In this document: positions 1-60,868 of the stretch, piece by piece
How the letters are laid out: each line of letters starts with the position of its first letter
Numbering within the stretch: position 1 is the stretch's first letter
Assembly (NCBI GenBank): GCA_951406725.2
Contig: OX597827.1
Span: 43,028,001-43,092,000 of the forward strand
DNA length: 64,000 nucleotides
Origin: Octopus vulgaris
Lineage: Eukaryota
Reading direction: 5' to 3'
Notes under the pieces: model-generated
Told to the model about the DNA's origin: nothing
The model's database searches: none
Seen by the model: the letters and a program-made list of their open reading frames with translations, nothing else
Made by a program: the position numbers and the translations under genes

Positions 1-1757
1 CCTTCCGAACCGGAGAGCACGCGCTCGGTTCAAAAGGAGAATGCATGCCAGGACGTCGCGTTCGACGTCACTCTTGATTTCCCCCCTCTGCCTTCAACAA
101 GTGATGCTGTACCGAAGGGGGAGGTAAAGAAAATTATAACAGACACAAACACAGACAAGAACCAACAAAAAACTGTAAAAGCTTCTAACGATTTTGCTTC
201 TGCTGCGAAGCAAATTTCGGAAGATGTAGAAATTACAATGGAGGACATAAAAATGGCACAAGATTTGTTGAGAAAGGAGGGGAACAGTGTTTTCCTCAAC
301 ACACCTCAACAACTCACACAAGAAACAAGCAAAAGAACAATCTTTTATAAAGTCTTCGAAAAGAAAACTAAAAGATTGTTTAACGCCACACCACAACAGT
401 TGGAGATGGCTCTGAAGCCCATTTGGGGCCAGAAGAGCTATGTGACAAGAGGGAAGCGATTTGGAACCGTGGAGGTTCGCTTCCCAACAGAGGAGCTTGC
501 AAGGGCAAACGCCATTTCGCCCTTGCAAAATGAACATTTGTTCCTCGTCCCGACGTACCTCGGGCGTAAGGTACAAAAAATAACCATAAGCACAATACCC
601 CCCGAACAGAAAATCTCATGGCTAGTGGCGGCTGTCCTCTATGGCATAGAGGACACTGCCACTATTCTGAATGTTCGGAGGGTACGAGAAAAGAACTGGT
701 CAGGCATGGGTATTCAACTGCTGGTACAGATCCAGCAGGAAAACATCAATGCCATACCTGACTTTGTCATCTTGCTGGATGGGACCAGGCTAAATGTTAT
801 TGTAGAGGGGCGAAAGCCAAAATGTTTCCTCTGCAGTAGCGAAAGCCACCTAAAAAGGGACTGCCCCATTCAAAAAAAGAGAATGGAGGAGTATAGCAAG
901 AGGCAGCAGCAACAACAACAACAACAACAACAACACAAGCAACAACAACAGAAACAACAAAAACAGCAAGAAAAACCAAAGGCTGCCACACCACCAACAC
1001 CATCACCAACACCAGCACCAAGACGAACAACACCACCTCCAACAACAACAACCACCACCAAACCAACACCGACAACCACCACCAAACCAACACCGACACC
1101 AGTACCTCGAAGGTCGACAGCAGCGACATCAACAGTAACAGGAGCAGCGGCACCACCGATACCGGCGGAACCTAAAACTTTTCGTCCTGCTACTGAAGCA
1201 GACCCCTCAACCATTCCTTTGCCGGATGAAGAGATCTCGGATTGTGCGAGCTCGGATTCCAACAAAGGAGAATGGAATATAGTACCTCCAAAAAGAAAAG
1301 GAGGAAAAAACAAAAAGTTTTACAGGGGAAGCACGAACAAATAGTACTTCCCAACATCAACAACAACATCAACAACAACACACACTCACAACAACAAACA
1401 ACAACAACAACACTTTCGACACCACTACTGCCACTACCACAGACACAAACAAACACAGACACAATTACAGACACGATTACAGCAGTGAATACAAGAAACC
1501 AGGAACTGGTTGAGTATTTGAAAAACAAAACAAGCACAAACATTACAGATTTCATAATACCTACACACAACACACCACCAGCACACATTCTCACAATAAA
1601 AATAAACAAAACAGTGTACAATGAAATAAAACAAATATTCCCTAACGATGTGGGATCGTTAGGGAAAAGTTTCTCTCAGAAACTTTACAAAAATATTATT
1701 GAAGCACCCGTGCAAAAGCACAAGGGAGCCACCCCCACCACCAACAACAGTAAGTAG
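1..1757 (+). CDS. ORF1 gag-like nucleic-acid-binding protein, copy 1 (5'-partial; 1-nt frameshift near 1290)
   Basis: Frame open from base 1 to 1344. CCHC knuckle CFLCSSESHLKRDC (823-864), polyQ, Pro/Thr tract. Copy 2 reads in frame into KKKRRKKQK...IVLPNINN, so the 1242-1757 ORF is the true C-terminus. Confidence 0.85.
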
Positions 1758-1795
1758 AGCCTTTTTTCTCCTTTTTTTTCCCTAATTCTTGAGAC

Positions 1796-4700
1796 ATGGC
1801 AAATCTTAGAATCGGTTGCTTGAATGTGAGAGGCCTCGGGTCACCTTGGAAACAGGGTCACCTGTTAAACGACCTGAGGTTTCATGATGTGGATATAGCA
1901 GCCATCAGTGAAACCAGGCTCTCCGACCCGCAGGAACTCGCAGCCCTTTTCGGCGGATACGAGATATTTCTATCTCCGTGTCGGCCGGGAGCGGGCGGTG
2001 GTGGTACTGCGGTGTTGTTTCGGAAGGGCCTGGACCTGAAAATAAGAACAGTCTTCTTGGATCCGGAAGGTAAGTTGGTGGTCCTCGACGTGGACGGTAG
2101 TGACGGCGGTGCTTTCAGACTGCTGGCTGCCTACGCTCCGACAGGAGCAGGGCAGTCGGATTATTTCAAACGTCTGGAAGTTTTCCTGGGAACGTCACGC
2201 ACTCTAGTACTAGTTGGGGATTGGAACGCTGTCTTAGACGAACGTTTCGATCGGGTGGGCAGGGGAGCGTCTGTTAGGAGAGGGGGTGGGTGCAAGAGCC
2301 TCGCCAACCTACTCGGCCGCTTTCAGCTGTCCGACAGGTTTCGACTAGACAACCCGAATGTGCCAATGTGGACTTGGACAAACCGCATCGGGTCGTCTAG
2401 ATCGTACTTAGATAGAGTGTTTTGTAGGCCAGCGGATAAGGACAGCGTAGGGTGTCCACAATTCCACCTAGTCGAATATACGGACCACAAATTAGTGATC
2501 TGTACGGTCGACTTAGATAGGCTACATAGACAGGGACCCGGCTACTGGAAGCTGAACGCGTCGTTAACGGCGTGCAAAGCTTACAGAGACCGGATTAGTT
2601 TACTAGTTAAGCGGGCGCTCACGGGGGCAATCATCAACAACAACTGGTGGTTTGCCCTCAAGAGAGCAATTAGAGTAGAGTCGATTAGGTATAGTAAGAC
2701 TCTAGCTATTGAACGTAGGAAGAGAGAGCGGGATTTAGTTAAGAAACTAGACGAGGCTCTTGACACTGGCATCGCGACCGACGTGTTGGCGGCAAGGTTG
2801 GCCCTCGACCAACACTTCGACGCCAAACACGAAGGCTGCGTTGTCAGAGCTAAGGCACGTTCGCTAAGCGGGGAGGGGACTAGAGCCGCTCGATGGGCCC
2901 GCGTGGCGGAGGCGAAGCGAGGCAACAGAGCAACCATTCGGTCTTTGGTGGACCAGAACGGGCGCGAGGTTACCCAACCGAAGCAGATGTGTACGGTACT
3001 TCAGCGGCACTTTGCTCAACTGTTTGGGACGAGCGGTGGAACGGACACCAACGGTACAGACTTCGGTGTGTACCTGGACGGACTGCCGCAACTCTCGGAC
3101 AGCGAGGCAGAGTGCTGCGAAGGACCGATATCTGCCTGGGAAGTACAGGAAGCGATGAAGAGTTGCACGAGAGGTAGATCGCCGGGTTTGGATGGTCTGC
3201 CCTACGAGCTTTACTTTTCAATGCCAGACTTGTTTGCGGACCTGTTGGCAAACGTCTACTGCAACTGGCAGCAAAACGGGAGAATTCCTGCTTTTGTCTG
3301 TCGAGGGGTGGTGGCTTTGCTAAAGAAGGACCCAAACAAGGGGGACGTTATAGGGAATTTCCGGCCCATCACTCTGCTCAATGCAGAGTTGAAGATTTTG
3401 GCCAAGGTGCTAGCCAAGAGATTGGCGCTTGTCGTGGACAAGCTGGTCGGCGGGACGCAGACATGCGCCGTGCCGACCAGGTCGATACACGACAACCTCC
3501 ATCTCATGCGCTACATCATAGAGAGGGTGGGTAACGACGCTGGCGCGGGTGGGGCTTTGATCAACTTGGATCAGAGTAAAGCCTTCGATAGGGTCGACCA
3601 TCGGTACCTGGCAGCTGTCCTCAAGGCAGCCGGCTTCGGTCCAGTCTTCCGCGGGTGGATCGCTGCTTTATACAGCAACATCTGCTCGGTGATACGGGTG
3701 AACGGTCACCTTTCGGAACCGTTCGACATCTCGCGTTCGGTCCGCCAAGGATGCCCTCTCTCCTCCCTCTTGTACATTTTGACTCTCGAGCCATTACTGC
3801 GCAAGTTGGAGGCTTTGAGGGGCATCCCGCGCGATCTAGGAGGCGGAAACAGCGTGTCTGCTTATGCCGACGACGTCACCGTGGTGGTGTCGAGCCACAG
3901 GCACATTGGCCTGATTGGCGAGACGCTAAACCAGTACGAAGCGGTGACAGGGGCAAAGATTAACGCGGAAAAGTCTGTGGGCTTGCAACTGGGCACCTGG
4001 AGAGGCAAGCCCATGCCGTCCAACAGCGTCGTAGGGCGCTGGACAGACGGACCCGTTAAACTGCTCGGGGTCTGGTTCGGTCCGGACCTCCAGGTGGATA
4101 AGAACTGGGAAGAGGTGACGAGCAGGGTGGCACGTCTCACCCAGAAATGGGCCGAGAGGAAGCTGTCCCTGAAAGGTCGAGCGGAGGTGGCGAATGCGTA
4201 CATCGCATCCGTCATCTATTACCGCTTGACCGTCGTCCCTTGTCCCGACCGCTGGTTGGCCAAGCTGGTACGCCTGCTCTTCGACTTTTTGTGGAAGGGT
4301 CAGGTGCCACTGGTCAGGCGATCCATCTGCTGTCAACGACCGCTGAACGGAGGCCTTGGAATGCCGTGGTTGCTGTTGCGCAGACATGCGCTCAGGCTGC
4401 GGCATCTCAAGCGCTTCCTAGACGGTGAACAGGTGTGGTCGTCTTTTGTCAGACGCGATTTTCCGCAGCTCGTCTCTTTGACGGAGCTGCAGACCTGGAT
4501 CAAACGTAGACCGAGAAAGGGCGCTTGGCACCTCGAGTGCCGTCAAGCCCTCTCCGCCCTCCGCCAGGCGGGCAATGCGGTCGGTTACAGCTCCACTCTA
4601 GCGTTCTATAGAGGGTTAGTGGAGGAAAAATGCGACGACGTTCTCGGGGAAACTCTAGGCGTTGAAGACGACGAACTGAGCGGTCTGTTCGGGAGGACTT

Positions 4701-5230
4701 TCGGGCCGGGGCCGATGGATAATTTCCAGAGGTCTCTCGCCTGGCAGTGCTACCGAGGGGCTCTGCCTGTTCGAGATAAACTCTACCGGCACGGAAGTGC
4801 CGTCAGCCGGGCCTGCCCGAGGTGTTGCCAGGACGACGAAACCGTTCTGCACGCACTCGTCCAGTGCCCGAGTATTGCTGAAATATGGGTTTATGTCGAA
4901 CAGCTACTGTCACGTGTAGGACGGATCCGACTATCGGCCGAATCCATAGTGAAGATTGCCCCGCCGACCTCCTTTAACAAGGAGGGCGAGGCCGTTTTCT
5001 TGTGCCTTGTGGCTGTGGCGAAAGAAGTCGTGTGGTGGACTCGTTTGAAAGGGCTAAAGTCAGACACTTTCCTCTTTGGTCAAGGCCTCATCAACTTTTT
5101 CAAGTTTCACTTGAAAAGGAAGATGAGGTTAGAGAGGAAAGTGCTGTCCGATAGCAAGTTTTATGAAAGGTGGGTGAATTGTGCGAGACTGGCCTGTATA
5201 AATGGACCAGTTCTCAGGTTTCGCCTGTGA
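1796..5230 (+). CDS. ORF2 pol: APE endonuclease + reverse transcriptase + C-terminal zinc finger, intact 1144 aa
   Basis: LNVRGL, SETR, GDWN, YLDRVF and TDH endonuclease motifs. SPGLDGL, FRPITLLN, DQSKAFDRV, QGCPLS and YADD RT motifs. CPRC...ETVLHALVQC finger typical of Tx1/L1. Confidence 0.97.
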   Translation: MANLRIGCLNVRGLGSPWKQGHLLNDLRFHDVDIAAISETRLSDPQELAALFGGYEIFLSPCRPGAGGGGTAVLFRKGLDLKIRTVFLDPEGKLVVLDVDGSDGGAFRLLAAYAPTGAGQSDYFKRLEVFLGTSRTLVLVGDWNAVLDERFDRVGRGASVRRGGGCKSLANLLGRFQLSDRFRLDNPNVPMWTWTNRIGSSRSYLDRVFCRPADKDSVGCPQFHLVEYTDHKLVICTVDLDRLHRQGPGYWKLNASLTACKAYRDRISLLVKRALTGAIINNNWWFALKRAIRVESIRYSKTLAIERRKRERDLVKKLDEALDTGIATDVLAARLALDQHFDAKHEGCVVRAKARSLSGEGTRAARWARVAEAKRGNRATIRSLVDQNGREVTQPKQMCTVLQRHFAQLFGTSGGTDTNGTDFGVYLDGLPQLSDSEAECCEGPISAWEVQEAMKSCTRGRSPGLDGLPYELYFSMPDLFADLLANVYCNWQQNGRIPAFVCRGVVALLKKDPNKGDVIGNFRPITLLNAELKILAKVLAKRLALVVDKLVGGTQTCAVPTRSIHDNLHLMRYIIERVGNDAGAGGALINLDQSKAFDRVDHRYLAAVLKAAGFGPVFRGWIAALYSNICSVIRVNGHLSEPFDISRSVRQGCPLSSLLYILTLEPLLRKLEALRGIPRDLGGGNSVSAYADDVTVVVSSHRHIGLIGETLNQYEAVTGAKINAEKSVGLQLGTWRGKPMPSNSVVGRWTDGPVKLLGVWFGPDLQVDKNWEEVTSRVARLTQKWAERKLSLKGRAEVANAYIASVIYYRLTVVPCPDRWLAKLVRLLFDFLWKGQVPLVRRSICCQRPLNGGLGMPWLLLRRHALRLRHLKRFLDGEQVWSSFVRRDFPQLVSLTELQTWIKRRPRKGAWHLECRQALSALRQAGNAVGYSSTLAFYRGLVEEKCDDVLGETLGVEDDELSGLFGRTFGPGPMDNFQRSLAWQCYRGALPVRDKLYRHGSAVSRACPRCCQDDETVLHALVQCPSIAEIWVYVEQLLSRVGRIRLSAESIVKIAPPTSFNKEGEAVFLCLVAVAKEVVWWTRLKGLKSDTFLFGQGLINFFKFHLKRKMRLERKVLSDSKFYERWVNCARLACINGPVLRFRL

Positions 5231-5749
5231 TTTCAAAGAAAAAGGTAATGTAAAAGGAGAAGAAAGGGGACTCTCTACACCCCCTTTTTTGACCAGGCTC
5301 CCGTTGGCTTTTGTAGGGTTTTTTCCACCGGGAACATTTCGAGACGTCTCCCCCTTTTGGGAGTTTTTCATTGTTGAATTTTATAAGTTGTTATAAAGAT
5401 TTTTACTCGATGTTTTTAAAAAAACGGCAAAACCCTTTGTAACCTTTCGTCCTGTCTTGTCCCTTTATGTAATCATGCGTGTCAGCCCTTGTGGCCAATA
5501 AAAAAGAATTGATTTATTATTATTATTATTCCTTCCGACGCCGATGGACGTACGTGAATCAGCTCTGTGAGTTTTGTGCCAATTTTATTGGAAATTTTTT
5601 AATAGGCTTGAATATTTTTTAATATTTTTGTAGCCAAACCGACCGGCTTCTTGCGGAGCTCGTCGGTTGGGCGAAAATTTTGCCCCTTCGGGGTGAAATT
5701 ACTGTCTATCCTTTTGAAATTGACATTTTTTGCACACACACATTACAAA

Positions 5750-6783
5750 ATGGCACTAAAACGAGCTGCTTGGCTCTTCCCTCCTTCTTGCAACACCCCC
5801 TACAAGAACAAAAAAAAATAACGTCACGGGTTACGTACAACCCATTTCAGGCCGTAAAAGGCAACAAAGATCCTCCTTCCGAACCGGAGAGCACGCGCTC
5901 GGTTCAAAAGGAGAATGCATGCCAGGACGTCGCGTTCGACGTCACTCTTGATTTCCCCCCTCTGCCTTCAACAAGTGATGCTGTACCGAAGGGGGAGGTA
6001 AAGAAAATTATAACAGACACAAACACAGACAAGAACCAACAAAAAACTGTAAAAGCTTCTAACGATTTTGCTTCTGCTGCGAAGCAAATTTCGGAAGATG
6101 TAGAAATTACAATGGAGGACATAAAAATGGCACAAGATTTGTTGAGAAAGGAGGGGAACAGTGTTTTCCTCAACACACCTCAACAACTCACACAAGAGAC
6201 AAGCAAAAGAACAATCTTTTATAAAGTCTTCGAAAAGAAAACTAAAAGATTGTTTAACGCCACACCACAACAGTTGGAGATGGCTCTGAAGCCCATTTGG
6301 GGCCAGAAGAGCTATGTGACAAGAGGGAAGCGATTTGGAACCGTGGAGGTTCGCTTCCCAACAGAGGAGCTTGCAAGGGCGAACGCCATTTCGCCCTTGC
6401 AAAATGAACATTTGTTCCTCGTCCCGACGTACCTCGGGCGTAAGGTACAAAAAATAACTATAAGCACAATACCCCCGAACAGAAAATCTCATGGCTAGTG
6501 GCGGCTGTCCTCTATGGCATAGAGGACACTGCCACTATTCTGAATGTTCGGAGGGTACGAGAAAAGAACTGGTCAGGCATGGGTATTCAACTGCTGGTAC
6601 AGATCCAGCAGGAAAACATCAATGCCATACCTGACTTTGTCATCTTGCTGGATGGGACCAGGCTAAATGTTATTGTAGAGGGGCGAAAGCCAAAATGTTT
6701 CCTCTGCAGTAGCGAAAGCCACCTAAAAAGGGACTGCCCCATTCAAAAAAAGAGAATGGAGGAGTATAGCAAGAGGCAGCAGC

Positions 6784-6814
<31 letters not shown>

Positions 6815-7617
6815 CAAGCAACAACAACAGAAACAACAAAAACAGCAAGAAAAACCAAAGGCTGCCACACCACCAACACCATCACCAACACCAGCACCAA
6901 GACGAACAACACCACCTCCAACAACAACAACCACCACCAAACCAACACCGACAACCACCACCAAACCAACACCGACACCAGTACCTCGAAGGTCGACAGC
7001 AGCGACATCAACAGTAACAGGAGCAGCGGCACCACCGATACCGGTGGAACCAGAAACTTTTCGTCCTGCTACTGAAGCAGACCCCTCAACCATTCCTTTG
7101 CCGGATGAAGAGTCGGATTGTGCGAGCTCTGATTCCAACAAAGGAGAATGGAGTATAGTGCCTCCAAAGAAGAAAAGGAGGAAGAAACAAAAAGATTTAC
7201 AGGGGAAGCACGAACAAATAGTGCTTCCCAACATCAACAACAACAACAACAACACACACACTCACAACAACAAACAACAACAACACTTTCGACACCACTA
7301 CTGCCACTGCCACACACACAAACACACACAGACACAATTACATCAATAAACACAAAGAACCAAAAACTAGTGGAGTACTTAAAAAACAAAACTAGTACAA
7401 ATATAACCGATTTCATCATACCAACACAAAACACACCACCAGCACACATTCTCACAATAAAAATAAATGCAAAAACATATGATGAAATCAAACAAATATT
7501 CCCTAACGATGTGGGATCGCTAGGGAAAAGTTTCTCAAGAAACTTTACAAAAACATTGTGGAAGCACCCGTGCAAAAGCACAAGGGAGCCACCCCCACCA
7601 CCAACAACAGTAAGTAG
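5750..7617 (+). CDS. ORF1 copy 2 (~620 aa after repairing small indels in homopolymer/short-repeat runs)
   Basis: ATG 5750 (MALKRAAWLF...) joins the 5680 frame if one A is added to the A9 run at 5810-5818. Further shifts at ~6475 (C5 vs C6 in copy 1), ~7255 and ~7537. Stop 7615-7617 is homologous to the copy 1 stop ending at 1757. Confidence 0.75.
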
Positions 7618-7655
7618 AGCCTTTTTTCTCCTTTTTTTCCCCTAACTTTTGAAAC

Positions 7656-10600
7656 ATGGCAAATCTTAGAATCGGTTGCTTGAATGTGAGAGGCCTCGGG
7701 TCACCTTGGAAACAGGGTCACCTGTTAAACGACCTGAGGTTTCATGATGTGGATGTAGCAGCCATCAGTGAAACCAGGCTCTCCGACCCGCAGGAACTCG
7801 CAGCCCTTTTCGGCGGATACGAGATATTTCTATCTCCGTGTCGGCCGGGAGCGGGCGGTGGTGGTACTGCGGTGTTGTTTCGGAAGGGCCTGGACCTGAA
7901 AATAAGGACAGTCTTCTTGGATCCGGAAGGTAAGTTGGTGGTCCTCGACGTCGACGGTAGTGACGGCGGTGCTTTCAGACTGCTGGCTGCCTACGCTCCG
8001 ACAGGAGCAGGGCAGTCGGATTATTTCAAACGTCTGGAAGTTTTCCTGGGAACGTCACGCACTCTAGTGCTAGTTGGGGATTGGAACGCTGTCTTAGACG
8101 AACGTTTCGATCGGGTGGGCAGGGGAGCGTCTGATAGGAGAGGGGGAGGGTGCAAGAGCCTCGCCAACCTACTCGGCCGCTTTCAGCTGTCCGACAGGTT
8201 TCGACTAGACAACCCGAATGTGCCAATGTGGACTTGGACAAACCGCATCGGGTCGTCTAGATCGTACTTAGATAGAGTGTTTTGTAGGCCAGCGGATAAG
8301 GACAGCGTAGGGTGTCCACAATTCCACCTAGTCGAATATACGGACCACAAATTAGTGATCTGTACGGTCGACTTAGATAGGCTACATAGACAGGGACCCG
8401 GCTACTGGAAGCTGAACGCGTCGTTGACGGCGTGCAGAGCTTACAGAGACCGGATTAGTTTACTAGTTAAGCGGGCGCTCACGGGGGCAATCATCAACAA
8501 CAACTGGTGGTTTGCCCTCAAAGAGCAATTAGAGTAGAGTCGATTAGGTATAGTAAGACTCTAGCTATTGAACGTAGGAAGAGAGAGCGGGATTTAGTTA
8601 AGAAACTAGACGAGGCTCTTGACACTGGCATCGCGACCGACGTGTTGGCGGCAAGGTTGGCCCTCGACCAACACTTCGACGCCAAACACGAAGGCTGCGT
8701 TGTCAGAGCTAAGGCACGTTCGCTAAGCGGGGAGGGGACTAGAGCCGCTCGATGGGCCCGCGTGGCGGAGGCGAAGCGAGGCAACAGAGCAACCATTCGG
8801 TCTTTGGTGGACCAGAACGGGCGCGAGGTTACCCAACCGAAGCAGATGTGTACGGTGCTTCAGCGGCACTTTGCTCAACTGTTTGGGACGAGCGGTGGAA
8901 CGGACACCAACGGTACAGACTTCGGTGTGTACCTGGACGGACTGCCGCAACTCTCGGACAGCGAGGCAGAGTGCTGCGAAGGACCGATATCTGCCTGGGA
9001 AGTACAGGAAGCGATGAAGAGTTGCACGAGAGGTAGATCGCCGGGTTTGGATGGTCTGCCCTACGAGCTTTACTTTTCAATGCCAGACTTGTTTGCGGAC
9101 CTGTTGGCAAATGTCTACTGCAACTGGCAGCAAAACGGGAGAATTCCTGCTTTTGTCTGTCGAGGGGTGGTGGCTTTGCTAAAGAAGGACCCAAACAAGG
9201 GGGACGTTATAGGGAATTTCCGGCCCATCACTCTGCTCAATGCAGAGTTGAAGATTTTGGCCAAGGTGCTAGCCAAGAGATTGGCGCTTGTCGTGGACAA
9301 GCTGGTCGGCGGGACGCAGACATGCGCCGTGCCGACCAGGTCGATACACGACAACCTCCATCTCATGCGCTACATCATAGAGAGGGTGGGTAACGACGCT
9401 GGCGCGGGTGGGGCTTTGATCAACTTGGATCAGAGTAAAGCCTTCGATAGGGTCGACCATCGGTACCTGGCAGCTGTCCTCAAGGCAGCCGGCTTCGGTC
9501 CAGTCTTCCGCGGGTGGATCGCTGCTTTATACAGCAACATCTGCTCGGTGATACGGGTGAACGGTCACCTTTCGGAACCGTTCGACATCTCGCGTTCGGT
9601 CCGCCAAGGATGCCCTCTCTCCTCCCTCTTGTACATTTTGACTCTCGAGCCATTACTGCGCAAGTTGGAGGCTTTGAGGGGTATCCCGCGCGATCTAGGA
9701 GGCGGAAACAGCGTGTCTGCTTATGCCGACGACGTCACCGTGGTGGTGTCGAGCCACAGGCACATTGGCCTGATTGGCGAGACGCTAAACCAGTACGAAG
9801 CGGTGACAGGGGCAAAGATTAACGCGGAAAAGTCTGTGGGCTTGCAACTGGGCACCTGGAGAGGCAAGCCCATGCCGTCCAACAGCGTCGTAGGGCGCTG
9901 GACAGACGGACCCGTTAAACTGCTCGGGGTCTGGTTCGGTCCGGACCTCCAGGTGGATAAGAACTGGGAAGAGGTGACGAGCAGGGTGGCACGTCTCACC
10001 CAGAAATGGGCCGAGAGGAAGCTGTCCCTGAAAGGTCGAGCGGAGGTGGCGAATGCGTACATCGCATCCGTCATCTATTACCGCTTGACCGTCGTCCCTT
10101 GTCCCGACCGCTGGTTGGCCAAGCTGGTACGCCTGCTCTTCGACTTTTTGTGGAAGGGTCAGGTGCCACTGGTCAGGCGATCCATCTGCTGTCAACGACC
10201 GCTGAACGGAGGCCTTGGAATGCCGTGGTTGCTGTTGCGCAGACATGCGCTCAGGCTGCGGCATCTCAAGCGCTTCCTAGACGGTGAACAGGTGTGGTCG
10301 TCTTTTGTCAGACGCGATTTTCCGCAGCTCGTCTCTTTGACGGAGCTGCAGACCTGGATCAAACGTAGACCGAGAAAGGGCGCTTGGCACCTCGAGTGCC
10401 GTCAAGCCCTCTCCGCCCTCCACCAGGCGGGCAATGCGGTCGGTTACAGCTCCACTCTAGCGTTCTATAGAGGGTTAGTGGAGGAAAAATGCGACGACGT
10501 TCTCGGGGAAACTCTAGGCGTTGAAGACGACGAACTGAGCGGTCTGTTCGGGAGGACTTTCGGGCCGGGGCCGATGGATAATTTCCAGAGGTCTCTCGCC

Positions 10601-11089
10601 TGGCAGTGCTACCGAGGGGCTCTGCCTGTTCGAGATAAACTCTACCGGCACGGAAGTGCCGTCAGCCGGGCCTGCCCGAGGTGTTGCCAGGACGATGAAA
10701 CCGTTCTGCACGCACTCGTCCAGTGCCCGAGTATTGCTGAAATATGGGTTTATGTCGAACAGCTACTGTCACGTGTAGGACGGATCCGACTATCGGCCGA
10801 ATCCATAGTGAAGATTGCCCCGCCGACCTCCTTTAACAAGGAGGGCGAGGCCGTTTTCTTGTGCCTAGTGGCTGTGGCGAAAGAGGTCGTGTGGTGGACT
10901 CGTTTGAAAGGGCTAAAGACAGACACTTTCCTCTTTGGTCAAGGCCTCATCAACTTTTTCAAGTTTCACCTGAAAAGGAAGATGAGGTTAGAGAGGAAAG
11001 TGCTGTCCGATAGCAAGTTTTATGAAAGGTGGGTGAATTGTGCGAGACTGGCCTGTATAAATGGACCAGTTCTCAGGTTTCGCCTGTGA
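7656..11089 (+). CDS. ORF2 copy 2 (EN-RT-ZnF), single 1-nt frameshift near 8520
   Basis: ORFs 7656-8537 and 8507-11089 together match copy 1 ORF2 almost residue for residue. CTCAAAGAGC here vs CTCAAGAGAGC in copy 1. Confidence 0.93.
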
Positions 11090-11370
11090 TTTCAAAGAAA
11101 AAGGTAATGTAAAAGGAGAAGAAAGGGGACTCTCTACACCCCCTTTTTTTGACCAGGCTCCCGTTGGCTTTTGTAGGGTTTTTTCCACCAGGAACCTTTC
11201 GAGACGTCTCCCCCTTTTGGGAGTTTTTCATTGTTTTAATAATCATTGTTTTAAAGTTTTTTTACACGGATTTTTTAACAAACGGACAAAACCCTTTGTA
11301 ACCTTTCGTCCTGTCTTGTCCCTTTATGTAATCATGCGTGTCAGCCCTTGTGGCCAATAAAAAAGAATTG

Positions 11371-11433
<63 letters not shown>

Positions 11434-19470: not shown

Positions 19471-19802
19471 TCTCAACTGGTACTTATTTTATAACCCCGC
19501 CCCTCGAAAGGATTTAAGGCAAAGTCGACCTCAGCCGTCTGCTACTACGTTCTGGGTTCAAATTCCGCCATGGTCGACTTTGCCTTTCATCCTTTCGGGG
19601 TCGATTAAATAAGTACCAGTTACGCACTGGGGTCGATATAATTGACTTAATCCGTTCGTCTGTCCTTGTTTATCCCCTCTGTGTTTAGCCCCTTGTGGGT
19701 AGTAAAGAAATAGGTATTCAAAACTCAGAACGTAAAGATGGACGAAATGCCGCTACGCCTTTTATGCCCGGTGCGGTAACGATTCTGCCAGCTCACCGCC
19801 TT
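19471..19802. mobile_element. SINE family B on minus strand, interrupted by a plus-strand family B unit (19536-19718)
   Basis: Minus-strand body 19471-19535 and head 19719-19802 flank an opposite-orientation 183-bp unit. Confidence 0.75.
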
Positions 19803-22074: not shown

Positions 22075-22476
22075 TGGCAGAATCGTTAGCAAGCCGGGCG
22101 AAATGCTAAGCGGTATTTCGGCAACCGTTACGTTGTGAGTTCAAATTCCGCCGAGGTCGACTTTGCCTTTCATCCTTTCGGGGCCGATAAATTAAGTACC
22201 AGTTAAGCACTGGGGTCGATATAATCGACTTAATACCTATGTCTGTCCATGTTTGTCCCTTCTATGTTTAGCCCCTTGTGGGTAATAAAGAAATAGGTAT
22301 TTCGTCTGCCGTTACGTTCTGAGTTCAAATTCCGCCGAGGTCGACTTTGCCTTTCATCCTTTCGGGATCGATAAATTAAGTACCAGTTACTCACTGGGGT
22401 CGATATAATCGACTTAATACCTATGTCTGTCTTTGTTTGTCCCCTCTATGTTTAGCCCCTTGTGGGTAATAAAGAA

Positions 22477-22479
<3 letters not shown>
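22075..22479 (+). mobile_element. SINE family B dimer (184-bp unit)
   Basis: B-box-like GAGTTCAAATTCC, central GTCGACTTTGCCTTTCATCCTTTCGGGGTCGATAAATTAAGTACCAG. Units start at 22112 and 22296. Confidence 0.85.
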
Positions 22480-22507
<28 letters not shown>

Positions 22508-25059: not shown

Positions 25060-25120
<61 letters not shown>

Positions 25121-25154
25121 GGTACGGGCTTGTCTGTGTGTTAAGAAGCCTGCT

Positions 25155-25554
25155 TAAGGCGGCGAGCTGGCAGAAACGTTAGCACGCCGGATGAAATGCT
25201 TAGCGGTATTTCGTCTGTCGTTACGTTGTGAGTTCAAATTCCGCCGAGGTCAACTTTGCCTTTCATCCTTTCGGGGTCGATAAATTAAGTACCAGTTACG
25301 CTCTGGGGTCGATATAATCGACTTAATACCTATGTCTGTCCTTGTTTGTCTCCTCTATGTTTAGCCCCTTGTGGGTAATAAAGAAATAGGTATTTTGTCT
25401 GCCGTTACGTTGTGAGTTCAAATTCCGCCGAAGTCGACTTTGCCTTCATCCTTTCGGGGTCGATAAATTAAGTACCAGTTACGCACTGGGGTCGATATAA
25501 TCGACTTAATACCTATGTCTGTCCTTGTTTGTTCCCTTGTGGGCAATAAAGAAA
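25155..25554 (+). mobile_element. SINE family B dimer inserted into the head of a family A SINE (25120-25990)
   Basis: Units at 25205 and 25389; flanked by TAAGAAGC(C/T)TGC (25142-25153 / 25555-25566); family A resumes after 25566. Confidence 0.82.
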
Positions 25555-25719
25555 TAAGAAGCTTGCATCTCAACCACATGGTTCCGGGTCCAGTCCCACT
25601 GCGTGACACCTTGTGAAAGTGTCTTCTACTATAGCTTCGGGTCGACCAAAGCCTTGTGAGTAGATTTGGTAGACAGAAGCTGAAAGAAGCCCGTCGTATA
25701 TATATATATATATATGTGT

Positions 25720-37122: not shown

Positions 37123-37727
37123 GAATGTATAGAGAGCCTAATCGAAGGAGCTAAATGTGCAGGCAGGCAGGCACAAGGACCTAGTCCCATCAATTCTTTT
37201 TCCCTTATTTTTTTTTTGTCCTGGGATCTCAGGCAAATGTCTCCCATGTAGTTTACTAAACAGTAGCATTCGTATATTTTATAAGGAAGGGAGCTTCCGG
37301 AAAAAGAACTTTGAATTCCTTGATGAATGAAGTTTTGTCTGTGGGACACATGCCGTGCTGTGCCATGCCATGCCATGCCATTCATTGTCATGCCGTGTGT
37401 GCGCGTGCGCGCACGCATTTGTGTGTGCATATATATATATATATACATATATGCAGATATATATGTATGTGCAGATATATATGAACCTGTAATATATATA
37501 TACATATACACCTTATTCAAATATATGTTTGGGAAATATAACATATACATATATTGTGTATGTTAATTATAAATATATATACTATACGCGCACACACACA
37601 CACACATATATATGGGGTCGATAAATAAAGTACCAGTTTCGCACTGGGGTCGATTTAATCGACTCAATCCCTTCGTCTGTCCTTGTTTGTCCCCTCTATG
37701 TTTAGGCCCTTTCTGTGCAGTAAAGAA

Positions 37728-37759
<32 letters not shown>

Positions 37760-40554: not shown

Positions 40555-43149
40555 CTTACTCATACCACACATTCATCTCTCTCTGCTTCCTAACATCTCT
40601 CCCTATATTACTCATTCTCTCTTTTGCTCTATCTTGTTTTGTTTCTTCTCTCTCTCTCTCTCTCTCCTTTATTTGTATTTGCTCTCTTCTTTTTTCTCTC
40701 TCTCATTTAATCTTTCTTTTCCTCCTCCCACCTTTCACGTAGTCTCTCTTTCTTTCTGTCTTTCCCTTTCTCTCATTGATACTTTATATCTCTTTCTCTC
40801 CCCTTCTGTTACCTTACGTCTCTCCTCCCTTACTCCTCCTCCTCTCTCTCTCATGCACTCGATCCTTCGTATCATTTCCTTCCTTCTCTCTTCTCTTTCC
40901 CTCTTTCTCTCCCTCCCTCCCTCTGACATTTATACTCTTTCATTTCTCATTGTTTCACCGTCATACCCCCTCCCCCGCTCTCATTCACACTTGTCGTGTA
41001 TCATTCTCCCCCCCTCTCTTTCTCTCTCTCTCCTTCTTTCACTCATATTTTCTCTCTTTCTCTACCGTCCACTGTTTTCTTCTTCTTTCTCCCCCTCTGT
41101 CTTATATTTTCTATCTCCGAAATGTCCCCCTCTCATCATTCCTTCTATCACAGCTTATCACTGTGACCACCTATTTAATATTTAAAGGACAAAGATAGAC
41201 AGATAGATAGATAGATAGATAATGAGAAATACAGAGGGAATGTGTCGGGCTGGGGGGATTAGTGCTATGCGTATCTTCTCTGAGTTCAATCCCGGCTCGG
41301 GAGCGGGAGCATGAATTTTCCTTTTTTTTTTCTCATCTTTTTTGCCTTATTATTTATATTTTTTTCATTAGTCGTCTACATAACGAAAAATTTAACTTTT
41401 TCGCGTCTTTCTTGCCAAAACACCGCATGACATTTCTGTTTTAAAATTCTGCTGTCATAAAAAGAAACAAAACCCTTATCATCATATTCTAATAAATTGT
41501 AGACGAATCGATTCAGGGGTGACGGGACCTCAAATAATAAATACCTTGCGCGGTATTGTGTCATGGGGGCTTTGCGTTTTTTTTTTTTTTTTTTTTTTCT
41601 TTCAAATTCAGATCCAACCGAAGTCGATTTTTATAGCTTTGCATTCTTTTAGGGTCGATTAAAATAAAAGTGGTCACTTAAATTTTGAGGTCGTTTATCG
41701 TCATCCGTGTTTAACCTTTCCCTACTCCTAAAAGTTCCAGGTCTTGCCGTCCCATGTTAGAAAAGAATATTGTTTATGAAATCATCGCTATTTTAAATTA
41801 TATTTGTTCACGGCTCTACACACTCTGAGTTCAAATCCAATCGTGGTTGACTTTTTTCTTTCTTCCGGGGTAGACAATAACAAAATAATAATAATAAATA
41901 ATAATAATAACAGATCAGTTAAATACTGGAATTGATGGTTCCGACTCGTCCCTATCCCTTTAAAATTGCTGTTCTTTGTGCCTTAGAAGCCTGACTATTT
42001 TATTCTACGAGCCCGAAAAATTTTCAGAGCTCTTGTGTCTGCTTCGATGTCTGTAAACGATTATTTTAAATAAGACATCCGTGTTCGAATCTTGCCCGCT
42101 CTCGTCTTTTGTCTTTCAAACTCTTTCCTCGGATACCAGTCATGTACTGCGGTCACTTATGCGAACTTTCCTCCACACTCCTCTCCACCAAGACTATATA
42201 CCCCTCATCTTCCATCCACCCCATTTTGCTCGCTTCGCTCTTAGAATCGAAGAATTATTATTTAAAACAGGAGAAAAAAATAATAATAATAACTATAAAC
42301 AATAACAAAAGATGTTGATATTGGTGAGGTAGGGTTTTTGTGATGATGAGGATGCTGAATATGTTGATAAGGATGATGGGTGATGATGGGTTTGGGACTG
42401 AAAAAGCTTAATAACTTGCTGGTTTTAAACGCGCCTAGCAAAACCATGAACCTCACAACACATTTACCCCGCCAAAAAAGAATGTATAAAAATCAACTGT
42501 CATATGTGTGCGCGTGAGCGTGTATATACACGTGTATGTGTGTGTATGTGTGTGTATGTGTGTGTGTGTGTACGGAGTGCGTGTATACGTCGTTGCCGTT
42601 CGTTCGCCAAAGCGTGAAGGCCACATTGAAATCCTATAATAATAATAATAATAATTAATAGTTAGTCATTGCGTTCTACAGAAATAAATAAATAAATAAA
42701 TAAATTATATCATCGTCGCTGTCGTTGTCATTGTTATTGTAATTGTCATCGCTCTCGTCGTCTTTGTCGTCGTCATCACGGTTTGTATGTGTGTGTGTGT
42801 GTGTGTGTGTGTGAGGGGTCCTGGTATTCATTATCATTATCATCATCACCACCACCATCACCATCACCATCACCGTATTATCCTCGTTGTCATTGTTCAC
42901 ACGCATGTCTATTGTTCTTTAGGGTGCAGTAGGAGTTTTGATCCCGTTTGAAAGAAATAAAGGGTTAAGGTTAGAGGGACGACTTCGCAGACAGACAGAA
43001 AAAAGGGGCTCCTTTGTTTGCTGGTGGTGGTCGTCGTCGTAGTAGCCATGGTAGTAGCTGTGATGAGGCTTGGTTCATCGTAGTGGTTGTGATGGTTGGG
43101 TTATACGTACGGTAGGGATCTTTTTGTTCGGGTCGGTTACGCTTGTATT

Positions 43150-45904: not shown

Positions 45905-47394
45905 ATGTGAATGTCGTACTTTATACATATAAAACGGGATATTCATATACATGCATACATACATATATATGCATATATAATATGCTAAATTATAAGGATC
46001 TTTTGGATGCTGCCTAATGAGGAATTAATAACGAATTTTCTCATTGTTTAATTTTTGTTAAATTTATATATATATATATATATATATATTTATGTTTATA
46101 AAATAAGGATATAATCAAATAATAATTATGTCAGTGGCCTAGTGCGTCCGACCTGTGGTTGAAATCGAGGACATGTCTTAGAGGGGATTTTTAGGTATTT
46201 GACATCTACTTCTAGCGTAGGCTGCTGGTCACATCCAGTAGCCCTTAATTATAATTATATTTAACAGTTATGTTTTTTCTAAAAAAACATATATATTTAT
46301 ATATATATATCCACCTTAAATACCTTATCGTCATGTGCGCGTGTATATATATATATATATTGTGTATAATGCTTGGTTATTATCATGGGAATATGTTCAC
46401 ACACACCAGGTATATATACATGCATTTATGTATAGTATATATATATATGTAAATGTGTGTGTGTGTGTGTGTGTGTGTCGAATAATATGTTTATATATCT
46501 GTATAGACGCACGGACGTTCGCGCACGCACAAACCTATTTTGCAAACAAAGCAATCACGTGCTTAACAGCAAAACGTGCTCAAATACATTAAGCGTGTTT
46601 ACATGCAAAATGCATATATGTACCGTGCGCTTAGCGTGCATGTGCTTACGTTGCAGTTTGTTTTTATACTTTTTGCGCATGCACGCACACACACACACAC
46701 ATACATACTTACATGCATACATACATTGTGCCTGAGAGGGAGCGTGTATGTGGTCGTGTTCAACCTGCTGAAAATAGCAGCCAAATCCTTTGGCCACTGG
46801 CTACTCCATATGCCTTAATCTACAATACACGAACAGACACACTCATGTGTTCGTGCTGTTTAGGCTCAGGTCAACACTAATGTAAAAGATCTTTGAGCAA
46901 AGGCGTTCTGGCCGTGACCATTTCGTCTTCTTTTTCTTTTATTTTAGTGGGTTTGGGTGTGGGCAAGGGTTATTGTTAAGGACTGCCTCACCTTATATTC
47001 CGATTTTTCTTCTTCTTTTGAAGACAGTAACAGAATTTGATTTGGGTGTTATTTCTAGCACGCCGAGCGACTACGGTTTGTAGGGGCCGTCTTGGAATTG
47101 CTTCTGTACGCGTTTACGCCCGAATTCGTGTCAATATATTCACGGGTTCCTAGGTGGAGACTGCGTGGCACAAGGTGTAAACTTCCGACCCAGTTTCAGC
47201 TCTTTGTTCGTTCAAGTTCAGCCTACCTGTATATGTGACACTGATGATTACTCTTACGGAAAAGCATGAACACCGACTCTTCCCGTTTCCTGCCACGCCT
47301 TTCCTAATATGCGTGTGCATGTGTGTGTGTATGTGTGTATTGTTGAAGGACTAGTGGCCCATGGAATCATGAATAAGCATGATTTCAAATTTTG

Positions 47395-47596
47395 GCACAA
47401 GGCCTGCAATTTTAGGGGAGCGGGTAAGTCGATTACATCGACCCCATTGTTCAACTAGTACTTATTTTCTCGACCCCTAAAGGAAAAAAGGCAAAGCTAA
47501 ACCGAGCAGTATTCAAGTTTAGCGCGCAAAGAACCGGAAGACATACCATTAAGCATTTTGTCCGACGCACTAAAGTTTCTGACAGCTTGCCACCTA
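47395..47596 (-). mobile_element. SINE family B variant (alternative tail), diverged
   Basis: Head, central domain and GGCCTTGTGCC tail on minus strand. Confidence 0.65.
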
Positions 47597-47956
47597 AGAG
47601 AAAGAAAATTGATATAATTTCGCTTTATTTTGTTGGGGTTAGGGGCCTAATTCTTCGTTGCTGCACTAGGGCCCCATGAATACTTTAAAAACCACCTGGG
47701 TTGCATCAGCGTTGCTCCTTTGCCCTAGCCACGATTCGACCTGGTTAACATCAGACTCTGGTTGGGATAGAGTTTATCTCACATGGCGGATGAGGGACAG
47801 CGAAAGTGGCCGCTGTTTCTCTACAACTAAGCTTATTAACTGCATTTCCAACCCCCAGCCACTCTGTGGAATGTTGTATCTCTGGTGAATATTAAAGAAT
47901 GTTTTGATGGCAATACACTGAAGGCAATAGTTTTTATTTTGATATTTCGGTCAGTC

Positions 47957-48565
47957 AAGGCGGCGAGCTGACGGAAACGTAAAGTACCGCCGGACCAAAT
48001 GCTTAGCGATATTTCGTTTGTCTTTACGTTCTGAGTTCAAATTCCGCCGAGGTCGACTTTGCCTTTCATCCTTTCGGGGTCGATAAATTAAGTACCAGTT
48101 ACGCACTGGGGTCGATCTAATCGACTTAATCCGTTTGTCTGTCCTTGTTCGTCCCCTCTGTGTTTAGCCCATTGTGGGTAGTAAAGAAATAGCTATTTCG
48201 TTTGTCTTTACGTCCTGAGTTCAAATTCCGCCGAGGTCGACTTTGCCTTTCACCCTTTCGGGGTCGATTAAATAAGTACCAGTTACGCACTGGAGGTCGA
48301 TATAATCGACTTAATCCCTTTGTCTGTGCTTGTTAGTCCCCTCTATGCTTCGCCCCTTGTGGGCAATAAAGAAATGAGAAACGTTAGCACGCGAACGAAA
48401 TGCTTAGCGGTATTTCGTTTGCCTTTAAGTTATGAGTTCAAATTCCGCCGAGGTCGACTTTGCCTTTCATCCTTTGAGGGTCGATGAATTAAGTACCAGT
48501 TGCATACTGGGTCAATCTGATCGACTCACCACAAATCTTGGGCGTTGTGCCTATAGTAGAAAATA
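47957..48565 (+). mobile_element. SINE family B trimer
   Basis: Units at 48008, 48192 and 48409; the last unit carries the alternative tail. Confidence 0.85.
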
Positions 48566-58681: not shown

Positions 58682-58684
<3 letters not shown>

Positions 58685-58837
58685 CGTTCTGAGTTCAAAT
58701 TCCGCCGAGGTCGACTTTGCCTTTCATCCTTTCGGAGTCGATAAATTAAGTACCAGTTACGCACTGGAGTCGATGTAATCGACTTTATCCCTTTGTTTGT
58801 CCCCTCTATGTTTAGCCCCTTGTGGGCAATAAAGAAA

Positions 58838-58840
<3 letters not shown>
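58682..58840 (+). mobile_element. SINE family B, 5'-truncated monomer with Tx1-like tail
   Basis: Body + AGCCCCTTGTGGGCAATAAAGAAATA within (TA)n. Confidence 0.85.
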
Positions 58841-60641: not shown

Positions 60642-60868
60642 TAAGGCGGCGTGAGCTGGCCGAACCGTTAGCACGTCGGGCGAAATGCTTACGTTCTGGG
60701 TTCAAATTCCGCCGAGGGCGACTATGCTTTTTATACTTTTGGGGTCGATAAATTAAGTATTAGTGAAACAGCGGGGCCGATGTAATCGACTAGACCCCCT
60801 CCCACTAAAATTTCAGGCCTTGTACCTTTAGTAGGAAGGATTATTATTATTATTATTATTATTATTAT
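60642..60868 (+). mobile_element. SINE family B variant with alternative tail ending in (ATT)n
   Basis: Head AAGGCGGCGTGAGCTGG, central domain, tail AAATTTCAGGCCTTGTACCTTTAGTAGGAAGGATTATT. Confidence 0.75.

Follow-up and report, generated by a model that had tools for sequence, protein, structure and literature searches.

A SINE family of Octopus vulgaris shares a probably homologous 3′ tail with an L1/Tx1-type LINE lineage

A 64,000-nt stretch of Octopus vulgaris DNA (assembly GCA_951406725.2, contig OX597827.1, positions 43,028,001 to 43,092,000; hereafter the window) carries copies of a SINE family, SINE B, whose tail resembles the 3′ end of a LINE located in the same window. We consider it probable that the SINE B tail shares ancestry with the 3′ end of an octopod lineage of L1/Tx1 type and that enzymes from this lineage copy SINE B; these enzymes are predicted to read a CUNGU hairpin and not poly(A). 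As a rule LINEs recognise their own 3′ tail, and the standard exception is the L1 group. A first-pass annotation of the window had proposed that a Tx1 lineage drives SINE B; we judge this interpretation right at the level of the lineage, based on the homologous tail and on a hairpin with compensatory stems at 41% ORF2 identity, and probably wrong at the level of the subfamily, that is, for the window LINE subfamily as the driver.

The LINE belongs firmly to the L1/Tx1 group and likely to the Tx1 clade (Table 1). Its ORF2 matched the Pfam domains PF03372, PF00078 and PF13966, and human LINE-1 ORF2p was its closest solved relative (E 3e-51, residues 5-862), compared with an E of 1.6e-22 at best for R2 in a PDB search, few other clades being represented among PDB entries. 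In reverse transcriptase trees constructed without curated Tx1 or L1 references, ORF2 grouped with a protein labelled TX1 at its source, with modest support (0.948 and 84/77). Its identity to a protein labelled Argonauta hians is 68%, in agreement with an octopod host. Members of the Tx1 clade have a gag-like CCHC zinc knuckle in ORF1; the knuckle pattern was seen directly in the window LINE, with Pfam zf-CCHC scoring under its cut-off (E 0.056 and 0.008). In copy 2, ORF1 (near 6480) and ORF2 (near 8525) are each interrupted by one frameshift, and its hairpin loop at 11347-11351 is followed by (TTA)n up to 11443. Differences between the copies are dense at 1250-1750 (63 differences) and at 5376-5427 (19), with nearly none in ORF2, and this patchiness suggests recombination between subfamilies. 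The surrounding DNA of the window is rich in microsatellites.

Table 1 Coordinates of the LINE copies, SINE B and SINEs with the second tail type in the window
Feature	Position	Strand	Remarks
L1/Tx1-type LINE copy 1	1..5512	+	5′ end beyond window edge
LINE copy 1 ORF1	1..1344	+	Open at window edge; C-X2-C-X4-H-X4-C knuckle, residues 275-288
LINE copy 1 ORF2	1793..5230	+	1145 aa, intact; APE endonuclease, reverse transcriptase, zinc finger
Variable part of 3′ UTR, LINE copy 1	5231..5427	+	19 differences between copies in 5376-5427
Pyrimidine/GU-rich block of shared tail	5428..5470	+	From contig depth and end-anchored alignment
11-nt spacer	5471..5481	+	Missing from SINE B; length varies across related elements
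Terminal mini-hairpin	5485..5495	+	GCC stem, CTTGT loop, GGC stem
AATAAA hexamer	5497..5502	+	No poly(A) tail after it
(TTA)n tract between LINE copies 1 and 2	5513..5530	+	
LINE copy 2	5531..11372	+	97.7% identical to copy 1; head-to-tail with copy 1
SINE B, 5′-truncated	19536..19711	+	Antisense insertion in B-box region of older SINE; 3′ flank GGTATT
SINE B dimer	22076..22481	+	Junction 22296/22297 at GGTATT; within (TATG)n tract
SINE B dimer, full-length	25156..25555	+	Junction 25389/25390; in head of another repeat
SINE B, 5′-truncated	37614..37731	+	Hairpin decayed; followed by (TA)n
SINE B dimer	47958..48376	+	Junction 48192/48193 at GCTATT; A-box region of a further SINE copy comes next
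SINE B, 5′-truncated	58682..58839	+	In (TA)n
SINE with second-type tail, SINE B head and body	60644..60840	+	C-rich block, AGGC-CTTGT hairpin, then (TTA)n
Older SINE, second tail type	47380..47598	-	GGC-CTTGT-GCC
SINE with decayed second-type tail	48377..48565	+	Hairpin at 48540-48552

The LINE end quoted in the first-pass annotation was located at 5443-5510 and is repeated at ~11302-11369 in copy 2, and the four SINE B tails cited alongside it were all found in place; the tail string quoted for the SINE is a composite of several copies, and the copy at 58785 falls 10 nt short of it. The motif had also been described as identical in both LINE copies next to a diverged UTR. The copies indeed show no differences over 5428-5514 and 19 in 5376-5427, but such identity is weak when taken alone because ORF2 too differs at only 22 of ~3500 sites; the unusual point is the 19 differences. 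The last ~85 nt of the LINE (5428-5512) aligned with all nine SINE B tails of the window. This alignment consists of two collinear blocks covering ~55 nt, one rich in pyrimidines and GU (5433-5470) and the other comprising CCCTTGTGG and AATAAA, separated by an 11-nt spacer that is present in the LINE only.

Assessment against shuffles, which the first-pass annotation had suggested as a check, was based on end-anchored alignment of the 85-nt LINE end with each SINE B tail, using shuffles that preserve dinucleotide content, and the shuffles were outscored in nearly all tests. At a gap setting of 2/-2/-5/-0.5 the SINE B score was reached by 0-7 of 2000 shuffles, and at 5/-4/-12/-1 by 0-1 of 2000; the strictest setting (2/-3/-5/-1) gave 0-25 of 2000 for eight tails and 369 of 2000 for the ninth. 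Unanchored alignment to the whole LINE with stiff gaps recovered only the last 20 nt in seven of the nine copies, with scores of 19-30 against shuffle means of ~20 and significance in no more than six copies. When the nine SINE B tails were combined in an nhmmer profile, the two LINE ends ranked first and second (E 0.11 and 0.13) in a search space of 479,913 bases, comprising the masked window and 80 decoy LINE loci. The decoys were distant LINEs from a metagenome scan (80 of 487 used), with best segments mostly 23-37% identical. No relative was found in viral contigs. The alignments support the view that the LINE and SINE B tails, each situated at the 3′ end of its element, are homologous.

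Motifs resembling Pol III A and B boxes were seen in the head of SINE B, and ARAGORN and Rfam returned no matches. The core G-C stem and the loop are perfect in six of the nine SINE B tails, three of the nine read AGTAAA, and two have a damaged loop. Target duplication could be read at the 25156-25555 dimer, which is flanked by 13-bp repeats (25143-25155 and 25556-25568, 11 of 13 positions identical), and was unreadable at the others. This dimer splits the head of a different SINE family (25120-25620), which we take to be CORE-like; SINE B itself is a candidate member of the Deu/Nin class. A MetaSINE assignment was rejected, as the 66-bp Meta domain is absent after the SINE B head when compared by eye with alignments of BivaMeta-SINE1 and BivaMD-SINE1. 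A further repeat family, with a different body and tail, has the GGGGTCGAT motif found in SINE B (13867, 17341, 32349 and 48685 on the minus strand; 21730 on the plus strand), and the body of SINE B agrees at 42 of 52 columns with a tRNA-headed SINE of another animal at L061:767-816.

Both tails contain a small hairpin, GCC-CTTGT-GGC in the LINE (5485-5495) and GCCC-CTTGT-GGGY in SINE B; the LINE tail has a stem of 3-4 bp and a CUNGU loop, followed by AAUAAA without poly(A). Nine such hairpins were counted in the window, compared with 0.1 in window shuffles. The folding energy of whole tails was no better than that of shuffles (z +0.5 to +1.0 for the LINE and +0.3 to -2.0 for the SINE), so that the case for the hairpin rests on comparison. 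The comparison was provided by a sister lineage of 62 loci (L081-L140, L144 and L145) obtained from a scan of GTDB contigs, with 41% ORF2 identity and 23-29% ORF1 identity to the window LINE. In the tree these loci are sister to the octopod proteins with a support of 100/100, and they split into two sub-lineages ~48% identical to each other. They derive from one GTDB record titled as an Arenicella MAG (contigs CAXXMW01), in which many contigs carry eukaryotic-type LINEs arranged head to tail in long arrays, with several subfamilies each stacked in arrays of their own; the arrays are evidently host contamination.

Among sister ORF2 ends with at least 800 nt downstream of ORF2, GGC-CTNGT-GCC, with the stem pairs swapped relative to the window LINE, and AATAAA were present at 58 of 58 (30 CTTGT, 23 CTCGT and 5 CTAGT), which amount to about nine tail variants from one host and one record and are not 58 independent cases. 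None of these 58 ends has a poly(A) of 10 or more within 40 nt of the hexamer. The combination of hairpin and AATAAA was absent from 87 more distant LINE loci, where three chance hairpins without AATAAA were found. A covarying stem-loop, which the first-pass annotation had proposed to look for, was recovered: 92% of 64 cells were paired, three of the four pairs showed changes in both partners, and every slid control gave a lower value, in a count over 16 hand-picked, related rows that represent about three independent stem states around one loop. The count omits the SINE B copy at 37665 (decayed hairpin), three SINE B copies whose hairpin was already represented by another row (22275, 22459 and 25368), LINE copy 2 and the decayed second-type candidates at 41637 and 51625. 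Most of the sister units were omitted as well, among them the CTAGT group.

Beyond the hairpin, the window LINE tail and the sister tails are not significantly similar (617-1176 of 2000 shuffles scored as high), and local alignment of the window LINE UTR with the sister UTRs gave nothing above chance. The SINE B tail profile had a best E of 14 against the 65 loci L081-L145, so the SINE B tail as a whole is without a match in the sister lineage. A second hairpin of 6-9 bp, with an AT-rich variable loop, is located just 3′ of the CUNGU hairpin in the sister lineage and runs into AATAAA (L097:561-580, L089, L085, L086, L083 and L123); its stems differ among subfamilies, and it is absent from the octopod LINE and from both SINE tail types. 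Small nuclear and ribosomal RNA pieces flank some of the other loci, namely U2 snRNA at the distant relatives L001, L003, L007, L018, L019 and L061 (Keno-like), U1 at L142 and 5S rRNA at L015.

The SINEs with the second tail type share head and body with SINE B and terminate in a C-rich block plus a hairpin of AGGC-CTTGT-GCC type. Their three tails resembled sister tails in the shuffle comparison (0-14 of 2000 shuffles in 11 of 12 comparisons, 71 in the twelfth), and were not distinguished from shuffles to the same degree against the window LINE (134-465 of 2000 as high). The reverse was observed for the two SINE B tails tested, with 0 of 2000 against the window LINE and 46-1570 of 2000 against four sister tails. 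The second tail appears to match the sister lineage and not the window LINE, and one SINE body has probably captured a Tx1 tail twice. Such double capture would also favour transfer from LINE to SINE, given that the sister loci hold no SINE B match. Two captures predict an octopod Tx1 family with the second tail; no LINE carrying it was seen in the octopod DNA examined.

Contigs from two public runs, compared with the LINE at 80% likeness, show many diverged ORF2 relatives. Summed contig depth, which does not equal copy number, was 220-266 thousand at 5440-5459 versus 4-41 thousand at 5395-5424 in the two runs. Loose ends of contigs start at 5428 in both runs and resemble other AT-rich UTRs. 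At 5456, T accounts for 63-71% of the depth, and this majority letter is nearer to SINE B than to the window LINE. At least four joints, each found in both runs, jump from ORF2 or the UTR to 5480-5484 (among 15 listed of 53), with short sides of 20-26 letters. Depth over the hairpin was unequal between the runs (110-140 thousand versus 6-12 thousand). No SINE-like loose end was present among the 12 listed of 73, which says nothing for or against SINE contigs. In stringent pairs the tail is kept among LINE families despite divergence elsewhere in the UTR, and this trait was found here.

Insertion sites bear on which subfamily mobilises SINE B. (TTA)n follows both LINE copies as well as contig loose ends, with joints from 5530/5531 into truncated copies, and may be either the insertion target or a templated tail. 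Preference for particular target sequences is common, though not universal, in the Tx1 clade. The 3′ flanks of SINE B are GGTATT (three cases), GCTATT (one), SINE A-box regions (two) and TA or TATG repeats (three). Because the LINE ends and stacks in (TTA)n, while none of the nine SINE B tails does, the window subfamily is unlikely to be the driver; we regard its direct role as doubtful, and a sister subfamily as the likelier direct driver. One of the two insertions in A-box regions carries the 13-bp duplication. GGTATT was not just copied along with a dimer, since one of the cases is the antisense insertion in an older SINE; the three dimers could go back to separate events or to a common one. 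Of the five SINE B tails with a GGGT stem, four are located just before GGTATT or GCTATT (19712, 22297, 25390 and 48193), as against none of the four other tails, and the tail subtype may track the target site.

Comparisons with published systems refer to the available parts of the papers cited. Three SINEs with L1-clade tails have been counted, in maize, sorghum and Chlamydomonas (Ohshima 2012, PMC3472496; Ohshima 2013, PMC3747384). These stringent plant and algal pairs (LINE1-1_ZM with ZmSINE2 and ZmSINE3; L1-1_CR with SINEX-3_CR) join an L1-group LINE and a tRNA-SINE through a common 3′ end of ~50 nt (PMC3472496, PMC3747384) and, like the octopod pair, have a hairpin with conserved loop letters and compensatory stems (PMC3472496). 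The octopod case differs from them in its animal host, its Tx1-like LINE, a much smaller hairpin and SINEs that lack both poly(A) and poly(T). Table 1 of PMC3747384 includes no SINE of animals whose tail is of L1 or Tx1 type, and our search of the accessible literature found no report of an animal Tx1-SINE pair that shares a tail. Crocodilian SINEU and Tx1-Mar (Kojima 2015, PMC4494074) resemble the present case in that mobilisation by Tx1 was inferred and another repeat is the preferred target; that link is based on common targets, with a poly(A)-ended SINEU and no LINE described with the SINEU-1 3′ end, whereas the octopod link is a homologous tail. Kibi and Koshi, the microsatellite-targeting Tx1 elements of fish, are like the window LINE in their simple-repeat ends and stacking, although their repeats are (TC)n or (TTC)n and not (TTA)n (PMC4494074).

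Zebrafish ZfL2-1 and ZfL2-2, together with UnaL2 and UnaSINE (Hayashi 2014, PMC4176376), serve as a model of mechanism, in which recognition is specific for the loop and depends on shape for the stem, the reading being done in zebrafish L2 by the region between endonuclease and reverse transcriptase. The zebrafish pairs belong to the L2 clade, have a longer stem-loop and were demonstrated by assay, whereas the octopod pair is predicted from sequence; 'Tx1' in that paper denotes mutant names and was discounted as a reference to the clade. The tRNA-Deu SINEs of octopus (PMC8967140) and Nin-domain SINEs (PMC5804259) can be likened to SINE B by description, with a tRNA-like head and a conserved body, and Table 1 of PMC3747384 gives CR1, L2, Crack or RSg-1 as partners of SINEs of the Deu and Nin types. 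The octopus repeat papers report L1-Tx1 in addition to tRNA-Deu/Core or unclassified SINEs, and a Tx1-SINE pairing is absent from the parts of them covered here (PMC13282606, PMC8967140). CR1 and L2 partners are described in the corresponding parts of mollusc SINE papers (PMC4824008, PMC4758252, PMC10294476, PMC5804259).

Other explanations of the shared tail were weighed against copying by Tx1 enzymes. Chance could have made two pyrimidine-rich ends with AATAAA after them look alike; this would fit the unanchored E of 0.11 and the low-complexity T/C/G content, but is very improbable, having been largely refuted by the anchored, dinucleotide-keeping shuffles, which were beaten in nearly all tests; moreover, both matches are at 3′ termini and the sister lineage confirms the hairpin independently. 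We give equally little credence to capture of a SINE B end by the LINE, through insertion in the 3′ UTR or a template switch, in which case transfer would have been from SINE to LINE with no partnership involved. SINE B is abundant and the sharp boundary at 5428 resembles a recombination point, as such a capture would have it, yet no SINE body is present upstream in the LINE, and the sister lineage, at whose loci SINE B has no match, has the hairpin fixed.

A non-Tx1 LINE might alternatively be the true source of the tail and the mover of SINE B, with Tx1 sharing the motif or having converged on it. R4/Dong, CR1 and RTE are candidates, being active in Octopus vulgaris (PMC13282606, Table 1), and the second SINE tail ends in (TTA)n, a type of repeat not peculiar to Tx1; the motif, however, is located at the 3′ end of two mutually sister LINE lineages with L1-type ORF2, and SINE B matches the window LINE over ~55 nt in two collinear blocks, which makes such a source quite unlikely. 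It is likewise unlikely, if a little less so, that the tail is Tx1-derived but its hairpin acts in forming the 3′ end, in stabilising the RNA or in packaging by ORF1p, with a relaxed reverse transcriptase and SINE B riding on any active LINE. The location of the hairpin, always just upstream of AATAAA, would suit a role in end formation or packaging, and the varied 3′ flanks of SINE B (four GGTATT or GCTATT, two A-box, three TA or TATG) would suit a relaxed enzyme. Against this, a Pol III SINE has little cause to keep a Pol II end signal, the core stem and loop are perfect in six of nine SINE B tails while the exact hexamer is lost in three, and tails proven to be stringent show this pattern of a fixed loop with a stem that covaries (PMC4176376, PMC3472496).

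Under the preferred explanation, copying of SINE B by Tx1 enzymes that read the hairpin, a tRNA-headed SINE would have gained its tail by a template switch onto LINE RNA, probably twice and once per sub-lineage. By analogy with zebrafish L2 (PMC4176376), ORF2p would bind the hairpin, recognising the loop by sequence and the stem by shape. Reverse transcription would begin ~10-15 nt beyond AATAAA, primed at the nick, and short matches between RNA end and target may shape the insertion site. SINE B would in this manner be mobilised in trans by Tx1 enzymes, with a sister subfamily that targets SINE heads as the putative direct driver, rather than the (TTA)n-stacking subfamily of the window.

More tentatively, and with somewhat more doubt than confidence, we suggest a broader history in which a single handle that does not depend on poly(A), consisting of a CUNGU pentaloop and a stem of 3-4 bp, was kept in animal Tx1 across ~60% ORF2 divergence and in different hosts, and was captured twice by one octopod SINE body from sub-lineages with oppositely paired stems. 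Tx1 would hence have driven much of the SINE expansion in octopus, and strict recognition would be old in L1/Tx1 and lost toward human L1. SINEs constitute 11.6% of O. vulgaris DNA according to the available part of PMC13282606. If true, the pairing would name a partner for one SINE type in SINE-rich octopus genomes. The tiny motif, its natural compensatory variants and the intact ORF2 make recognition directly testable and comparable with the solved L1 ORF2p structures. Tail-sharing in animal Tx1, if true, would mean that strict recognition also reaches the animal relatives of human L1, and would bear on whether the recognition of poly(A) is a derived state.
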